19,628 bases of DNA. Origin: a virus. A program made the position numbers and the translations under genes. Shown in pieces: positions 3,025-16,149 of the stretch. Within the stretch, counting starts at the first letter, position 1; the number at the start of each line of letters is the position of its first letter. The notes beneath the pieces are model-generated. The model did not search any database. It saw nothing but the letters and a program-made list of their open reading frames with translations, and was not told where the DNA came from. The DNA is taken from the UHGV virus genome UHGV-0278008. One strand, 5' to 3'.

Positions 3025-3030
3025 GCCCAT

Positions 3031-3055
3031 AAAAAAAGCCCCTCCGGAGAGGGGC
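3031..3055 (-). terminator. Intrinsic terminator, minus strand (end of TerB-like transcription unit)
   Basis: gcccctc/gaggggc stem with 4-nt loop; A7 on plus strand = U-run on minus. Confidence 0.5.
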
Positions 3056-3305
3056 TGACGCTGCGTATCTGTATCATCATGCGCATGGTGCCGGGTGCCT
3101 CCCGGTGAGTTCAGTCCGGTGTCCCTGAACCCGCGTATCTCGATCCAGGTTGTCGTCAGAGATGACACCTTATACACCAGTCGCCCCTCCGCACAGGGGG
3201 ATTCACCATGCGAAATTTTTTTAACAAATGCTCAGTCTGACAGGCAACTGTCAACTGACTGAATTGTGAGACATTTAAAATTTTCGGGGCATGACTGATA
3301 CCCGG

Positions 3306-4054: not shown

Positions 4055-4068
4055 TGGTAAATAAATAT

Positions 4069-4145
4069 GGCGCGTTGTACTGGATTCGAACCAGTGACCG
4101 ATTGCTTAGAAGGCAATTGCTCTGTCCGGCTGAGCTAACAACGCA
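4069..4145 (-). tRNA. tRNA-Arg, anticodon UCU, CCA encoded
   Basis: Hand-folded cloverleaf: acceptor gcgttgt/acaacgc, D-arm gctc/gagc, anticodon loop cttCTaa, T-loop ttcgaat. Confidence 0.8.
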
Positions 4146-4158
4146 GTGTACCGATAAT

Positions 4159-4235
4159 GGACCGCCATCGAGGACTCGAACCCCGCGCAACCAGCTTCGA
4201 AGGCTGGCGCTCTGTCCCGATGAGCTAATGGCGGT
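4159..4235 (-). tRNA. tRNA-Arg, anticodon UCG, CCA encoded
   Basis: Acceptor ccgccat/atggcgg, anticodon loop ctTCGaa, T-arm cgggg-ttcgagt-cctcg. Confidence 0.75.
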
Positions 4236-4244
4236 ATGTGATAT

Positions 4245-4320
4245 GGTGGCCCTTGCTGGATTTGAACCAGCGACCTGGCGATTATGAGTCGCTCGCTCTC
4301 ACCACTGAGCTAAAGGGCCG
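4245..4320 (-). tRNA. tRNA with anticodon CAU (Ile2-type or Met), CCA encoded
   Basis: Acceptor ggccctt/aagggcc, D-arm gctc-agtggtga-gagc, anticodon loop ctCATaa, T-loop GGTTCAAATCC; same order as ileZ-argN-argO of Stx phages. Confidence 0.8.
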
Positions 4321-8415: not shown

Positions 8416-8571
8416 TTACTTCTCAGATTCGTAGTCTACGAAGACAGCAACCTCCGTCTGGCCGGTTCGGATTCGTACCTCGCAGAGGTCTTTCCTCGTT
8501 ACCAGTGCCGTCACTATGACGGTTAAACAGATGACGATCAGGGCGATTAACATCGCCTTTTGCTGCTTCAT
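8416..8571 (-). CDS. hok: Hok/Gef-family type I toxin (51 aa)
   Basis: MKQQKAMLIALIVICLTVIVTALVTRKDLCEVRIRTGQTEVAVF... is near-identical in pattern to HokD/HokC. Confidence 0.85.
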   Translation of the reverse strand: MKQQKAMLIALIVICLTVIVTALVTRKDLCEVRIRTGQTEVAVFVDYESEK

Positions 8572-8628
8572 AGTCTGCTTCTCCTTGACCTTTCGGTCCG
8601 TAAGAGGCAATCTATATGTGACGAGCAT
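8416..8628 (-). CDS. Mok-like in-frame N-terminally extended reading frame over hok (70 aa)
   Basis: ATG at 8628..8626 with GTGAGG SD; MLVTYRLPLTDRKVKEKQTM- extension resembles recalled MokC N-terminus. Confidence 0.45.
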   Translation of the reverse strand: MLVTYRLPLTDRKVKEKQTMKQQKAMLIALIVICLTVIVTALVTRKDLCEVRIRTGQTEVAVFVDYESEK

Positions 8629-8671
8629 ATAGGGGCCTCACTTCGATTTATAGTCGGGTGGGGCTTTTATC
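8600..8671 (+). ncRNA. Candidate Sok-like antisense RNA; 5' end not determined
   Basis: Plus-strand hairpin gcctcac (8634-8640) / gtggggc (8660-8666) plus U-run 8667-8670, antisense to the mok SD/start; TTGACC at 8585-8590 is a possible -35. Confidence 0.35.
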
Positions 8672-8816
8672 TATCTGCCGTTGGTGTTCATGCCCGAGGC
8701 AGATAGCCTCAAGCACCCGCAGCAATTTTACAAAAACAAACTATTATTTTCTATGTCCTTTCACTTGTCTCATTTCTGACTATACTGATCGCTCACACAA
8801 CACAAAAGGTATAAAA

Positions 8817-9112: not shown

Positions 9113-9457
9113 TCATCGTAAAATATCCTCCTCGCTTATCAGTCCGTTTCGCTTCAGGTAGTCCATCGCTTTATCCGGTAATTTACAGTCCGGCTTCGCT
9201 TTCCTCAGTTGCCAGGTTAACTGCTTTACCAGCATGCTTAACTCGTCGACCAGACGCTGATATCCCACTGGTTTGTATTCATGCAATTTACCGACTGGCT
9301 CTGCTGCCAGCAATGCCAGTGCGATTTCCAGAACAGCAATATCCATCTTATATGTGCGGATGATATCATGGTCGATTGTGCCCGGTATGCACAGTCTCTG
9401 TGCTTCAATAGTCTCCTCTGCGTGAGCTATTAACTGCTCTCTGGTAAAAGTGGTCAT
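9113..9457 (-). CDS. Hypothetical nin-region protein (114 aa)
   Basis: ATG overlapping upstream stop (ATGA); N-terminus shares pattern with the 9971..10396 product. Confidence 0.6.
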
Positions 9458-9969
9458 GCCGCGCTTCCTTCTTGCTTATTAACGATTACACCGTCATATA
9501 TTTCATTAAGGTGTCCCCTCAACTCCATGCGCCTTAATGCAGACAACATGTAATCGCATTCAACCTGCTTATTTCCAGTAAATGGCTTATCGTCAGGCTC
9601 ACCCCAACAGCAATTACCCTTGGGCCACCCATGTACTTTCCGTACTCTTCCGTTAACAACGTGAAGTAATCCCCAGCCAGGTGGTAAATCCTCAATTGAA
9701 ATAATTCCCGGCTCACTGATAAAGAATCTCCAGTCGCCCATGCCAAGAGAGGGATTTTTACGGAAACGCTTTTTTCTATCTGCCAACAAGTCAGCACGAG
9801 AACACTTCGCCTCTATCAGGCATGATGCTGAATTTCTGAATCCCATAGCATCTGGTTGTTCTCCAGTACTGGTTACAGCAACAAAGCGGTCATGAAAGCA
9901 AACCTTGAACCCGTTGCGCTTAAGGAACCTGTACGCAATCTGACAGAGTTCGCGGTGCGTTAACGCCAT
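9454..9969 (-). CDS. Putative PD-(D/E)XK-fold nuclease-like protein (171 aa)
   Basis: ATG with AAGGAG SD; motif PDAMGF-x13-EAK fits PD...(D/E)xK signature. Confidence 0.5.
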
Positions 9970-10396: not shown

Positions 10397-10545
10397 TTTT
10401 CATTACCGCCCTTTCGGGCGGCCTCCTGATGTTCTGAGGGTGCAGGAATCCCTCCGGTTAAGGATTAAATTTTATTTACAGTGCTGATTTTAATTATTCA
10501 GTTCTGGATTATGCTTTCTCTTTCACTTGCTGTAGTTCCTGGTAA

Positions 10546-10851
10546 TTAATTTCGCTCACTGGTTGCCTCCTGGAAAATAACTGCATGTCCCAGCTTCACT
10601 GCCAGTGCCAGCTCTGCCTTAGCGCCCGCTGACCGCTGCCAGCCTTTCAGCATGTAAATCGCATCCACGCAGCGTATCATCGCCATGCAGATATCCATGT
10701 ACTGCGGCTGTGTCAGCCCGTCCGGAAGTACTGCCGGATTTAAGACTGTGTGCCCTTCCCGTTTCAGTTCCTCTTCCGCCTTGTGGAAGGCCTCACGGTT
10801 GAAATTTTTATACCCGGTCATTGGACCGGCAATATAGACTCTCACCCTCAC
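10546..10851 (-). CDS. DUF4406 / nucleoside 2-deoxyribosyltransferase-like fold protein (101 aa)
   Basis: GTG start overlapping upstream stop (GTGA); MRVRVYIAGPMTGY... Rossmann-like N-terminus typical of this fold. Confidence 0.65.
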   Translation of the reverse strand: MRVRVYIAGPMTGYKNFNREAFHKAEEELKREGHTVLNPAVLPDGLTQPQYMDICMAMIRCVDAIYMLKGWQRSAGAKAELALAVKLGHAVIFQEATSERN

Positions 10852-11243
10852 GCCACCACCTTCTGAAAATTACCCTGACAGAACGCCAGTACACGCTGCA
10901 TAACTTCGCTATTTCGGCACTCACTGCAAATTATGTTCTGATGCCTGTCATAGCGGCGTATTTCTCCGTCTGGTAACTTTCGAATCAATGTCTGGTCGGT
11001 TGTTTTCTCCGCTGTCTTACGCCATACGCGATACACCTGTTCAGATGCAAAAACACCGTATTTACCGGACATGTATAAATCGCCACAAGCCAGTACATCC
11101 ACAAGGCAACGTCTGACGGAATGCCAGCCTGCTCCCGTCGCTCTCTCCAGTTGTGATATCGTCATGCGTCCATTTTTGCGTACCAACCCGATAATTCGGG
11201 CCTTCAGTTCTTCACGCTGTTCGTGTGTAAAAGGTTTCGCCAT
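10848..11243 (-). CDS. Hypothetical winged-helix-like protein (131 aa)
   Basis: ATG at 11243 with GGAGG SD 5 nt upstream (ORF-track TTG start at 11258 rejected). Confidence 0.6.
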   Translation of the reverse strand: MAKPFTHEQREELKARIIGLVRKNGRMTISQLERATGAGWHSVRRCLVDVLACGDLYMSGKYGVFASEQVYRVWRKTAEKTTDQTLIRKLPDGEIRRYDRHQNIICSECRNSEVMQRVLAFCQGNFQKVVA

Positions 11244-11258
11244 AAGCGCCTCCGGCAA

Positions 11259-11984
11259 TCACTTTTCCGACACAATACGACCGGATGAATCGACAATCTG
11301 TCGAACAATATCCTGGTGTTTGTTCAGCTCCCGCAGCGCGGCGCAGACTCGCTCCCACTTCTGCACATCACTTTTCGCCCGGCGCAGCTCGCGGTTAGCC
11401 ACATGCAGCGATGGTAGAATCAGGTCATCTGCTTTCGTTTCGGTGACCGATGGCAACGATTGCACAATATCAGCCACAGTTTCTGTTTTAATATCTTCCT
11501 GTGTTGCAGCTTCCTGTACTGGTAACGCAACACCTGCTGGCTGAGGAAAGGCTTTACCATCGGTTTCCGCTACGGATGCAGCTTCCGGCTCTGCCGGTAA
11601 ATCAGCGCCCGGTATGCAGTAACGAAATTTACCGCCCTGATTCACGCGAATCAGACGACCTTTGTTGAGTGCATATGCCAGTGTTGAAACCACTTTGCGT
11701 GATGTGGTACTGAACGACATGGCCATATCATCAGCCGTTTGTGGGCCATGTTGTTCAATCGCCTTAATCAGCATTTGCGCTGTCACTTTCGGTACCGGTG
11801 ACACCGGTTCACTTTCACCAGCCTGAATCAGCCACCACATCGAACCCTTGTTATCCGCTTCACCGCGGCGCTTCAGTTTCCACAGTTCGTTGACCGCATC
11901 TTCACGGCTGATTCCAAGGCGGGCCGCCACTACCTGTGAAGAGGCTCTTTTCAGTGCTTTCAGTGCGTCAAATACGGTTTCCAT
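11259..11984 (-). CDS. Hypothetical prophage protein, DUF1627-like (241 aa)
   Basis: ATG with GGAGG SD; N-terminal HTH-like segment ([18 protein letters not shown]), acidic/Pro-rich linker. Confidence 0.55.
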
Positions 11985-12013: not shown

Positions 12014-12754
12014 TCAGTTCCTGTGCTGGCTGACGTTCGGACGCCAGCTCTCCCAGTTAAACGTCACCCAGCGACCACCGTTCATGGACATGCGGTCCAT
12101 TACCCGCTCGCCGAGAAGTGTATTCATCGCTGCATGATTAAGATTTGTCAGCATCCCCACACTGAGTAACGATGCCGTTCTGCGGTCAACAATCTGATTC
12201 AGCGTGACCTGCTCATTACGCGTATCCCGTTGCATGCCAATTTCATCCAGTACCAGCAGGTCAACGCCACACAATCCCTGCAAAAATTTTTCGCCCGAGT
12301 TTTTGTTGTCGTAGCTGCCATGTAACGCCAGCATCACATCCGCCACTGTTATCACAATCACACTGTGACCTTTCGCCAGAAGGTGGTTGCCAATAGCCGC
12401 CGCCAGGTGGTTTTTTCCTGTGCCAGGCCTGCCACTGAAAACAAAATTCGTACAGCCGCCTTCCAGCTCTGCCGCAATGGATTTCGCCTGACTCAGGGCA
12501 TGGCGCTGACCATCGTTCTGCACCCGGTAGTTACCGAACGTACACTTCCGGTGAAGCGGCTGGATACCGGAGCGGTTAATGATTTTTTCAACCCGCGTCT
12601 GATGATTCAGACGATTAACCTCCTCGCTTCGCTTACGCCCTTCAGCAAGCTGCCATTCCCGCCACTCCGCCACCGTACGGTACGGAGGGATTACATCCTG
12701 CGGCACAAATCTGCTGACTCTTGCCAGAACACCACCTGACGTAATGTTTTTCAT
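12014..12754 (-). CDS. DnaC/IstB-like replicative helicase loader ATPase (246 aa)
   Basis: Walker [12 protein letters not shown], Walker B LLVLDEIG; position after O-like gene. Confidence 0.85.
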
Positions 12755-12760
12755 GATGCG

Positions 12761-13714
12761 CTACCCCCTGAAACCCGGCGGAATTTCGGTATCCGGTTCA
12801 GAAATATGATTCACGCAACGCTGCGCGGGCGAACGCCCCAGGCGAATAACCAGTTCATCCCATTTTTCCCGGAGTTTTGCCGGGCTCATGATGTTTTTTA
12901 CCCAGAACGAATCCCGTTGAACACGCCCAAACATTTCACAAATCTGTCGGTGACTACGTCCATCCAGCATACGCATCATGCGCACATCATTCGCCCAGGT
13001 CGTCCAGTTAGGCTCTCTGGGGCGTGATACCTCCCCATCATCACTGGCGGCCTGTTCATACAACGCAACAACCCGTCCCCAGATCCACTGTGCACACGTC
13101 AAATCCTCCCGGGTTCCCCACTGTCGCTTCGGTACATTCCAGGTATGCGCATCCGGGTGTTTCTCCAGAAATCGCTCAACTGGTGATGATTGTTTTTCGT
13201 CCGGCAGTGAAACGTCCGGACAAGAAGATCTTTTATCTGACGGATCAGGTTTTAATACTGACGGATCGGGGTCAATCATCGCCCCCCTAATCCGCAGTTT
13301 TTTATCAACAGTTGATCCATCAACATTTGACGGGCCAACCGTTGAGGGGGCAATATTTGACGGGTCATTTTTTGCCGGGCTAATTTTTCTTTTTGGTTTA
13401 TATGCCTCACTCGCCGCCGCTGCAGCTGCTTCAAGTTTTTCCACATTAAGCCGATAGATATTGCTTACATTACGCCCACCGACCTTACGCTCTTCCTTCG
13501 TCAGCCAGCCCTCTTTCGCCAGTTCTGCAATAGCAGATTTAACGGTGGATTCACTTCTTGCACCGATCTGACGCCGGATAGTTTCAATGGCAGGCCATGA
13601 CACGCCCTCGTCATTGCTGTAGTCTGCAAGACGGGCCATAACTGCCACCCTGGATAAGATCATGCCGGTAAAGGCGCACCCTTCCCAGACAAGACCATGA
13701 AGCTTGCTGCTCAT
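12761..13714 (-). CDS. Replication initiator, O-like / YdaU-like (N-terminal wHTH, repeat linker, C-terminal domain), about 318 aa
   Basis: ATG at 13714 preferred over GTG at 13729; N-terminal HTH (VSWPAIETIRRQIGARSESTVKSAIAELAKEGWL); internal iterons. Confidence 0.7.
   Translation of the reverse strand: MSSKLHGLVWEGCAFTGMILSRVAVMARLADYSNDEGVSWPAIETIRRQIGARSESTVKSAIAELAKEGWLTKEERKVGGRNVSNIYRLNVEKLEAAAAAASEAYKPKRKISPAKNDPSNIAPSTVGPSNVDGSTVDKKLRIRGAMIDPDPSVLKPDPSDKRSSCPDVSLPDEKQSSPVERFLEKHPDAHTWNVPKRQWGTREDLTCAQWIWGRVVALYEQAASDDGEVSRPREPNWTTWANDVRMMRMLDGRSHRQICEMFGRVQRDSFWVKNIMSPAKLREKWDELVIRLGRSPAQRCVNHISEPDTEIPPGFRG
13304..13406. repeat. Putative replication origin: four tandem 15-16 bp iterons followed by AT-rich tract, inside O-like gene
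   Basis: atcaacagttgatcc / atcaacatttgacggg / ccaaccgttgaggggg / caatatttgacggg at 13304-13364, then tcattttttgccgggctaatttttctttttggtttatatg. Confidence 0.55.
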
Positions 13715-13736
13715 AACCCCCCCGAACACCGTGCTT

Positions 13737-15608: not shown

Positions 15609-15666
15609 CCATGTGTAGTCTTTGGTGGCATCAGTTCTACTCCGTGACTGCTCTGCCACCCTTTTT
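15609..15666 (+). ncRNA. dicF: DicF-like sRNA (3' two-thirds conserved, including terminator)
   Basis: GGTGGCATCAGTTCTACTCCGTGACTGCTCTGCCACCC+TTTTT closely matches recalled DicF 3' region GGCGGUAUCAGUUUUACUCCGUGACUGCUCUGCCGCCCUUUUU; 5' boundary uncertain. Confidence 0.6.
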
Positions 15667-16149
15667 AAAGTGAATTTTGTGATGCGGTGAATGCGGCTAA
15701 GCGCACGCGGAACAGTTAAAACAAGCGGTCTTTTACTGGCGTAACAGACATCAACTAACAATCCGGCGTTAATTGTTAACTGGTTAACGTCACCTGGAGG
15801 CACCAGGCACTGCATCAACAAAGTTCACTTCGGTGATGAAGGGTAAGAGAAAATGTTGAATGTAGCTATTGAAAACCAGAATGGGTGGAATTATAGTGCA
15901 CCTGCACCTCATAAAGCGGGTGCCGGGCGTGGAAACCCGATGATGACTACTGCGCATAACCGCGCTCAGGCGGTTTTTTTATGCGTAATGCACAGCCACA
16001 TTCAGATTATGGTGGGGCGTGCAGGGCAGCCGAAAGGCTGGCCGGTTTCGGTAGTCACCGGTATTTCCACCCCTGTACGTCTCACCACCCTTATGGTCGT
16101 GGAAAGCCTTGGTGGTGAGTTATTTAAACTGACTATCGAGGCTGCCATC

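Follow-up and report, generated by a model that had tools for sequence, protein, structure and literature searches.

Enzymes of the nucleoside 2-deoxyribosyltransferase (NDT) superfamily are characterised by a catalytic triad of Tyr, Asp (or Asn) and Glu, and the superfamily members that hydrolyse nucleoside monophosphates and deoxynucleoside monophosphates (dNMP) lack the Asp/Asn that holds the 5'-OH in the nucleoside transferases (PMC12884076). DmtZ of the Z-genome actinophages is an NDT-like phage protein with dAMP hydrolase and deoxyribose-5-phosphate transferase activity, which occurs either as a stand-alone protein or fused to Dut (PMC12884076). In the current analysis we have studied a stretch of 19,628 nucleotides of the virus genome UHGV-0278008, referred to here as the window, which encodes on its minus strand a 101-residue protein of the family DUF4406 (10546..10851) directly behind a 131-residue protein of the family DUF977 (10848..11243). 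We lean with moderate confidence towards the view that the DUF4406 protein is a solitary and minimal enzyme of the NDT superfamily, an N-glycosidase or transferase that acts on a 5'-phosphorylated nucleotide and is made along with the replication genes of the phage.

Family and fold of the DUF4406 protein

The 101-residue protein matches the Pfam family PF14359 (DUF4406) over its full length (E-value 2.1e-37; score 127.9 bits, cut-off 22; residues 4-93 aligned to positions 2-91 of the 91 of the profile), and the identical protein has been named DUF4406 in RefSeq too. It is made up of a single domain of about 95-100 residues in which all the motifs of the family are present, namely YIAGPM(T/S)G, NR..F, LNPA.LP.GL, YM.I..M and GW..S.GA..E. 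In the window gene these are represented by Y6-IAGPMTG, N18-R19, F22, LNPAxLPxGL, Y51-M52 and W71-x-x-S74-x-G76-A77-x-x-E80. The protein is also matched by PHROG 355, which carries the label 'nucleoside 2-deoxyribosyltransferase'. A weak but collinear cross-match to DUF1937 (PF09152) has been observed in Pfam (E-value 3e-4), and searches of NCBIfam and PADLOC gave nothing relevant for this protein.

The AlphaFold model, which was built from 46 homologues, has a predicted local distance difference test (pLDDT) value of 91.6 and a predicted template modelling score of 0.84. The modelled chain follows the topology β1-α1-β2-α2-β3-α3-β4, with four strands and three helices, and its ordered part reaches to the end of strand 4, about residue 93-96. 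Comparison of the model with the PDB using Foldseek places NDT (from T. brucei, Chroococcidiopsis, Leishmania and Bacillus), MilB/BcmB and DNPH1/Rcl in all the top 35 matches, with template modelling scores of 0.66-0.78 on the query; normalised on the targets, which are of 130-165 residues against the 101 of the query, the score is only about 0.5. On the strength of the model, the protein is assigned the Rossmann-like α/β fold of the NDT/DNPH1/MilB superfamily, of which it appears to be a shortened version. A first-pass annotation of this DNA had pointed to the N-terminal YIAGPMTG signature and to a fold like that of the nucleoside 2-deoxyribosyltransferases. The signature is evident in the sequence and in the end-to-end match to PF14359, and the fold is borne out by the AlphaFold model and the Foldseek matches.

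Conserved residues and the putative active site

Conservation was assessed in an alignment of the window protein with 121 representatives that are 40-64% identical to it (122 sequences). G9, F22, S74 and E80 are present in 100% of the sequences, G76 and A77 in 99%, P39, Y51 and M58 in 98%, N18 in 93%, W71 in 92% and R19 in 88%, and the position of Y6 is occupied by Tyr in 105 sequences, by Phe in 16 and by Met in 1. The segment S74-A-G76-A-K-A-E80, which takes the form S-x-G-A-x-x-E in the family, is located in the loop and helix following strand 3, and its Ser and Glu are spaced as are Ser98 and Glu104 of DNPH1 and Asp92 and Glu98 of NDT. A global alignment of the 122-sequence profile places Y6, S74 and E80 on Y24, S98 and E104 of DNPH1; the match is weak (E-value 0.011, probability 1.8%), and the alignment has been used solely as a check of register. 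The corresponding alignment to NDT gave no sensible register. Alignments made by hhalign from a shallow profile of 46 sequences to DNPH1 and to the NDT of L. leichmannii were local and made no sense, and these were discarded.

Judged from these motifs, E80 would be the counterpart of the Glu nucleophile of the superfamily, situated six residues after [D/S]-x-G, and Y6 the counterpart of the strand-1 Tyr that orients this Glu. The invariant Ser74 at the place where the nucleoside transferases have Asp would point to a 5'-phosphorylated substrate.

Proposed reaction and role

Family membership and fold, the invariant residues, the order of the genes, the distribution and the lack of a fixed partner are established by the analysis; the catalysis, a phosphate-bearing substrate, the timing of expression and the role are inferred. 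A 5'-phosphorylated (deoxy)ribonucleotide would be cleaved at its N-glycosidic bond through a covalent (deoxy)ribosyl-Glu80 intermediate, and the sugar phosphate would then be handed either to water, as in a hydrolase, or to another base, as in a transferase. Glu80 is predicted to be positioned by Tyr6, which lies at the end of strand 1, and the phosphate would be held by Ser74, by the loop G9-P-M-T-G13 and by N18/R19. The protein would be translated from the GTG that overlaps the stop codon of the preceding gene, its transcription probably taking place, upon induction or infection, in an early operon of pR type that also contains the replication genes, as gene order suggests. The most likely role would be the remodelling or sanitising of the nucleotide pool for phage DNA synthesis.

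A number of observations weigh against this proposal. The third residue of the triad (Asp, rarely Asn) is not conserved: the candidate in the window protein is D53, which is present in 43% of the family; an acidic residue is found at 53 or 55 in 69 of the 122 sequences (57%), and the weak alignment to DNPH1 sets D80 of that protein on C55. The match to PF05014 (Nuc_deoxyrib_tr) remains below the threshold (16.7 bits against 28.8), and HMMER searches of the PDB sequences, with the single protein and with the profile, gave chance matches only (a Mediator subunit and a sulfhydrylase). The C-terminal helix and strand that complete the substrate pocket in NDT and DNPH1, partly from the neighbouring subunit, are absent from the 101-residue protein. 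In the searchable literature DUF4406 is mentioned in three papers, each time incidentally, and biochemical or genetic data were found for no DUF4406 protein, and the fusion and neighbour surveys brought out no informative domain fusions or conserved metabolic neighbours. In favour of the assignment to the superfamily, the sub-threshold match to PF05014 is collinear in the window protein and in three relatives (residues 5-93 on positions 1-95 of the profile). Since the third triad residue is not conserved, DUF4406 is best regarded as a distinct and reduced branch of the superfamily which is not orthologous to any characterised enzyme.

Junction and genomic partners of the DUF4406 gene

The DUF4406 and DUF977 open reading frames (ORF) are real genes and not chance ORFs. 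The DUF977 gene is read here from its ATG, and the mechanical ORF reaches back to a TTG at 11258. It overlaps the DUF4406 gene in the sequence GTGA (10848..10851, minus strand), in which the stop of the first (TGA) and the start of the second (GTG) coincide; the junction reads ...CAG AAG GTG GTG GCG TGA, the start taking its G from the end of GCG and its TG from the stop. A Shine-Dalgarno-like AAGGTGG lies within the last codons of the DUF977 gene (10856..10863, minus strand), and relatives have the stronger CAGGAGG at the same position, seven bases upstream, this element being retained in both upstream-gene contexts described below. None of the 124 related junctions listed from viral contigs departs from the overlapping first GTG, and the in-frame GTG two codons after it is replaced by GTC or GTA in 28 of them; the overlapping GTG is therefore the conserved start of DUF4406. 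The first-pass annotation had given two ORFs of 101 and 131 residues at this place and a GTGA overlap between them, in agreement with the ORF check and with the sequence of the junction.

The neighbours of DUF4406 have been surveyed at the level of species, with one genome taken per species and 80 loci encoding a DUF4406 relative. A DUF977-like ORF is found within 4 kb upstream in only 4 of the 80, and just one of these is a strong match, in an E. coli-type contig binned with a Collinsella metagenome-assembled genome. Clustering by sequence sorts the 72 immediate upstream neighbours into 56 groups and the 71 downstream ones into 62. An overlap of 4 nucleotides with whatever gene precedes has been observed in 28 of 72 distant loci. 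Neighbours sampled in the loci of Vibrio, Edwardsiella, Sodalis and Bacillota/Clostridia include phage helicases, a replication initiator, an exonuclease, an endonuclease, an HNH protein and a Q-like protein; such DNA-metabolism neighbours in distant taxa have been counted in favour of a nucleotide enzyme.

The survey from the side of DUF977 comprises the best 80 DUF977 loci in IMG/VR, of which 79 are informative. DUF977 is followed by DUF4406 in 48 loci and by another gene in 31, which in 26 cases encodes an unrelated zinc-ribbon-like protein of 137 residues. Among the closest 80 viral DUF4406 genes (at least 89% identity), 55 are situated behind DUF977 and 25 behind a different protein of about 105 residues, with the same GTGA junction. 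Of 40 E. coli records sampled evenly, 24 have DUF977 as the overlapping upstream gene, 4 a 'DNA-binding protein' and 10 a 'hypothetical protein'.

The pair of DUF977 and DUF4406 is thus frequent, not obligatory, in the lambdoid prophages of E. coli. As an optional cassette in the slot after a Ren-like gene, DUF4406 carries an overlapping start of its own and has no partner at the level of the family; the GTGA overlap is ordinary operon packing and the link to DUF977 is incidental. Because of the counts obtained (4 of 80 species-level loci with DUF977 upstream, 31 of 79 DUF977 loci followed by another gene, 25 of 80 close relatives behind another helix-turn-helix protein) and the generic overlaps in 28 of 72 loci, the two genes are largely not co-conserved, and the functional coupling that the first-pass annotation had implied for them is not supported.

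The slots before and after DUF977 both behave as cassette sites. The 137-residue protein found in the slot after it shows a weak match to TFIIB-type zinc ribbons (L083 3397-3810 and 25 similar loci), and in one locus (L115 3393-3881) the same slot is occupied by an ORF of 162 residues that likewise overlaps DUF977 by 4 nucleotides. The protein of about 105 residues that replaces DUF977 upstream of DUF4406 (L217 3687-4004) has sub-threshold similarity to HTH_23 and to sigma-70 region 4, is unrelated to DUF977 and is associated with the Shine-Dalgarno sequence CAGGAGG. A Rac-like prophage of E. coli O157:H7 PA20 (L249 3783-4100) encodes a hypothetical protein of 105 residues that precedes DUF4406 with a 4-nucleotide overlap.

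DUF977 as a long form of lambda Ren

The 131-residue protein matches Pfam PF06163 (DUF977) end to end (E-value 6.7e-68, 227 bits). It is further matched by PHROG 142, the 'Ren-like exclusion protein' (E-value 2.1e-43), and over its first 68 residues by PHROG 2391, a 'DNA binding protein' (E-value 4.9e-9). Ren of phage lambda is aligned by hhalign with residues 15-123 (probability 95%, E-value 3e-8), and the two have in common a tail of the form ECR.S..M.RVLA. The AlphaFold model has a winged helix in residues 7-65, in the order helix-strand-helix-helix-strand-strand, with pLDDT values of about 90 at residues 10-75 and of 54-76 beyond; the Foldseek matches of this model are all winged-helix regulators (GntR, IclR, MntR and MarR), with weak E-values. 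In the alignment of DUF977 the recognition part of the winged helix varies and the C-terminal 45 residues are almost invariant, the tail being LPDGEIRRYD...NIIC.ECR.S..MQRVLAF. DUF977 is confined to Escherichia, Shigella and Salmonella, and none of the papers searched deals with its function, resistance to Rex exclusion included.

On the basis of the profile comparison, DUF977 is taken to be a homologue and long form of lambda Ren. This relationship had not been recognised in the earlier reading of the DNA, whose suggestion of a winged-helix protein agrees with the model and with the folds it matches. The reading of DUF977 as a long Ren is a by-product of this study and constitutes new information. 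Ren is said, after work of Toothman and Herskowitz in 1980, to be the lambda determinant of resistance to Rex exclusion.

Early operon and prophage setting

In phage lambda, cro-cII-O-P-ren forms a single pR transcript (PMC3640518). A stretch of about 1 kb of the window is 100% identical to part of a Rac/Qin-like lambdoid prophage of E. coli CP55_Sichuan, which is integrated next to tRNA-Ser and mtfA. In the direction of transcription the genes encode a Cro-like protein, a YdaT/CII-like protein, an O-like initiator (12761-13729, minus strand), a DnaC-like loader (12014-12754, minus), a DUF1627 protein homologous to YdaW (11259-11984, minus), DUF977 and DUF4406. The genes of this block overlap by 4 nucleotides or are separated by gaps of up to 29. 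DUF4406 is followed by a gap of 149 nucleotides, and then by Ea22-like genes, hok/sok, DUF968, RusA, a Q-like protein, a methyltransferase, tRNAs and the lysis genes. A promoter and terminator scan between the replication genes and the DUF977-DUF4406 pair found nothing above the expectation from shuffled sequence. Judged by gene order, the pair would most simply belong to the early rightward operon of pR type. The placement in a phage early region, which the first-pass annotation had proposed, is borne out by the upstream genes that run in the same direction (Cro-like, YdaT/CII-like, O-like, DnaC-like and DUF1627).

At the locus no signal above background came from Rfam, from the promoter and terminator scan or from folding of the 149-nucleotide downstream spacer. 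Most of this spacer between DUF4406 and the Ea22-like gene (10400-10513) recurs with 91-95% identity in phages that encode neither DUF977 nor DUF4406, and may represent the boundary of a mosaic or a conserved leader. At its end lies a GC hairpin (GGCCGCCC-GAAA-GGGCGG) without a U-run, and the z-score of the fold is only -1.07.

The DUF1627 protein is a full-length homologue of YdaW of E. coli K-12, with 56% identity over the first 150 residues; the Rac prophage of K-12 is truncated directly after ydaW. The ydaW gene has been listed in a preprint among the prophage genes that block RcaT, the toxin of retron-Sen2. A retron connection for DUF977 was considered on this account and rejected: the reported blocker of RcaT, an NDT-like retron toxin, is the K-12 homologue of the DUF1627 neighbour and not of DUF977.

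Other elements of the window have been identified as well. Rfam matches at gathering level are found for DicF, IsrK and C4 antisense RNA (15610-16092, plus strand) in the immunity-side region, for sok (8569-8718, minus) beside a Hok-like ORF, and for STnc100 (3025-3240, minus) near the lysis genes; the set is typical of Qin/Rac-like prophages. Three phage tRNA genes lie downstream of the methyltransferase gene (4068-4319, minus), namely Arg-TCT, Arg-TCG and a tRNA with anticodon CAT, which is Met according to ARAGORN and Ile according to RefSeq. An intact ORF of 171 residues (9454-9969, minus) matches PHROG 9263/631, to which PHROG assigns no function; RefSeq marks only a frameshifted fragment at the matching place in the strain with the identical 1-kb stretch.

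Distribution and annotation of DUF4406

DUF4406 comprises 18,225 representative clusters (50% identity) at E-values up to 1e-3 and 6,610 at up to 1e-10. The family spans several phyla and is also found in prophage-like loci of Bacillota genomes. The gene is encoded in 1,280 of 5,426 complete E. coli genomes (24%), in 1-4 copies each. Relatives have been identified by tblastn in 623 of 50,697 phage records, from temperate as well as lytic phages of Proteobacteria and Actinobacteria, with hosts such as Arthrobacter (133), Vibrio (124), Gordonia (110), Mycobacterium (92), Pseudomonas (34) and others. Among them are lytic actinophages and N4-like roseophages, in which DUF4406 is among the first genes. 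Only 10 records of Escherichia phages have a match and the classical model coliphages are absent from the sampled rows, which fits the lack of functional data on the family.

The GenBank labels 'MazG-like pyrophosphatase' and 'deoxycytidylate deaminase' carried by some members (L243-L246: Optimus, Polka, Floof and vB_DshP-R7L) sit on single-domain DUF4406 proteins of 122-139 residues, and database names in this family are therefore unreliable. Fusions to MazG-like or deoxycytidylate deaminase proteins had been considered as a clue to the substrate and were rejected as errors of label transfer, the proteins being single-domain. Twenty longer representatives (203-358 residues) have no second Pfam domain, and odd fusions to a ClpX zinc finger, the C-terminal domain of the RNA polymerase alpha subunit and an anticodon-binding domain look chimeric or over-extended.

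The significance of DUF4406 lies in a large, widespread and wholly uncharacterised family that combines what appears to be the conserved nucleophile of the nucleotide N-glycosidases with a stripped-down architecture. Its substrate, once found, would bring to light something new, either a phage route for editing the nucleotide pool or an activity directed against defence. Both as a member of the family and in its place the window gene is typical, has no special twist and is not surprising in itself; in a family that is catalogued yet uncharacterised it is a reasonable candidate for biochemistry.

Alternative explanations

A role in counter-defence or defence is possible, though we consider it unlikely. 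The first-pass annotation had raised such an idea as speculation, and a speculation it stays. Here a protein of the same fold would act on an immune signal derived from a nucleotide, or on the precursor of such a signal (NAD+, cyclic ADP-ribose isomers, cyclic or base-modified nucleotides), by destroying or sequestering it, and so allow escape from abortive infection; the chemistry of the enzyme may even be that proposed above, the role being different. The probable early expression beside a homologue of Ren, a patchy distribution like that of a cassette, with the gene present in 24% of E. coli genomes and its slot open to other genes, and the location of the gene in the early region of lytic N4-like phages are consistent with such a role. 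Against these stand the absence of a match in PADLOC, no dedicated anti-defence library having been compared, the absence of a TIR or SLOG match in Pfam at E-values up to 0.1, and a literature in which neither DUF4406 nor phage NDT-like proteins are linked to anti-defence. The fold by itself cannot tell functions of the NDT type from those of the TIR/SLOG type. Extended to the whole family, in which DUF4406 would be a widespread phage counter-defence family, an early minimal NDT/TIR-like enzyme or sponge directed at a nucleotide-derived immune signal or precursor and placed in the slot of a Ren-type anti-exclusion gene, the suggestion becomes more doubtful. A true nucleoside 2-deoxyribosyltransferase, which swaps bases between free deoxynucleosides in salvage, is improbable. 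It would agree with the label of PHROG 355, with the GenBank product names and with the NDTs as the best Foldseek matches. The names in the family are unreliable, though, PF05014 stays below its threshold, the C-terminal segment of the NDTs is absent, and the position six residues ahead of the nucleophile, Asp in the nucleoside transferases, is occupied by an invariant Ser, which the phosphate-specific hydrolases have there too (PMC12884076).

The truncated architecture, the triad Asp that is not conserved and the Phe in place of Y6 in 13% of the family would suit a small non-catalytic protein, in which a remnant of the fold serves for ligand binding or as structure. With Glu80, Ser74 and Gly9 conserved in 100% and Gly76 in 99% of sequences at 40-64% identity, and with the conservation concentrated in the motifs that build the active site in the relatives, this is even less probable than a true transferase. 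The least probable of the explanations, and one already largely refuted by the missing co-conservation, is a dedicated two-gene module in which DUF977 and DUF4406 act as regulator or antitoxin and enzyme or toxin, like a type II toxin-antitoxin system, or as a DNA-targeted enzyme complex. The arrangement invites it, with a helix-turn-helix gene upstream, a small enzyme downstream and a 4-nucleotide overlap; the pair is adjacent in 24 of the 40 E. coli records sampled and, among the closest 80 viral loci, in 55, and NDT-like domains have been reported as toxic retron effectors. But a DUF977-like ORF accompanies DUF4406 in only 4 of the 80 species-level loci, among neighbours that are diverse on both sides (56 of 72 upstream and 62 of 71 downstream as separate clusters), DUF977 occurs without DUF4406 downstream in 31 of 79 loci, and near-identical DUF4406 genes are found behind another helix-turn-helix protein. 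DUF977 is moreover limited to Escherichia (with Shigella) and Salmonella and DUF4406 is present in several phyla, and the retron-toxin blocker YdaW corresponds to the DUF1627 neighbour rather than to DUF977.

Comparison with known systems

DUF977 resembles lambda Ren in being homologous by hhalign, in belonging to the same PHROG and in its position at the end of the replication block of a pR operon. It is longer, with 131 residues against the 96 of Ren, the difference being made up of an extra linker and the segment LPDGEIRRYD, and in the window the DUF1627 gene is situated between DUF977 and the loader gene.

The DUF4406 protein has also been compared with the TIR and SLOG proteins (Thoeris, SARM1) and the NDT-like retron effectors. 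Their structural scores against DUF4406 are lower than those of NDT and MilB and there is no match of sequence family; they are effectors or sensors of host defence, usually fused or paired, whereas DUF4406 is a solitary phage gene. DUF1937 (PF09152; PA1492 of P. aeruginosa, PDB 1t1j) is also small, is among the structural matches of the AlphaFold model and gives the weak Pfam cross-match, with 16% identity. It adds no mechanism, because it is itself uncharacterised.

The NDTs (PF05014; Lactobacillus, Trypanosoma and Chroococcidiopsis) provide the best Foldseek matches (E-values 4e-5 to 1e-3) and the collinear sub-threshold Pfam match, and have their catalytic Glu in the equivalent helix. DUF4406 differs from them in the Ser that replaces Asp six residues before the Glu and in the absence of the C-terminal segment with its Asn and terminal Tyr/carboxylate. 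DNPH1/Rcl, the 2'-deoxynucleoside 5'-phosphate N-hydrolase, and MilB/BcmB, the N-glycosidases of CMP and hydroxymethyl-CMP (hmCMP), appear to share with DUF4406 the N-terminal Y-x-x-G loop, and DNPH1 also the motif Ser-x-Gly-x-x-x-Glu with the spacing of its phosphate-binding Ser and nucleophile Glu. These enzymes have 130-175 residues, compared with about 100 in DUF4406, which lacks the last pair of helix and strand that completes the active site and the dimer. The triad Asp is likewise not conserved in DUF4406, and HMMER detects no homology.

DmtZ is not a member of DUF4406, as its authors needed a hand-made hidden Markov model and found no Pfam model that fitted (PMC12884076). It is a protein of about 145 residues with the catalytic residues Tyr6, Asn77 and Glu103 and a lid Trp contributed by the second subunit (PMC12884076), and it belongs to a separate, longer branch than DUF4406 and is tied to PurZ0 genomes, whereas the window prophage has no such genes. 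As a phage enzyme of the NDT superfamily that acts on a dNMP, it offers a precedent for the use of this fold in the control of the phage nucleotide pool, and is the closest functional precedent among phages for the role suggested here for DUF4406.

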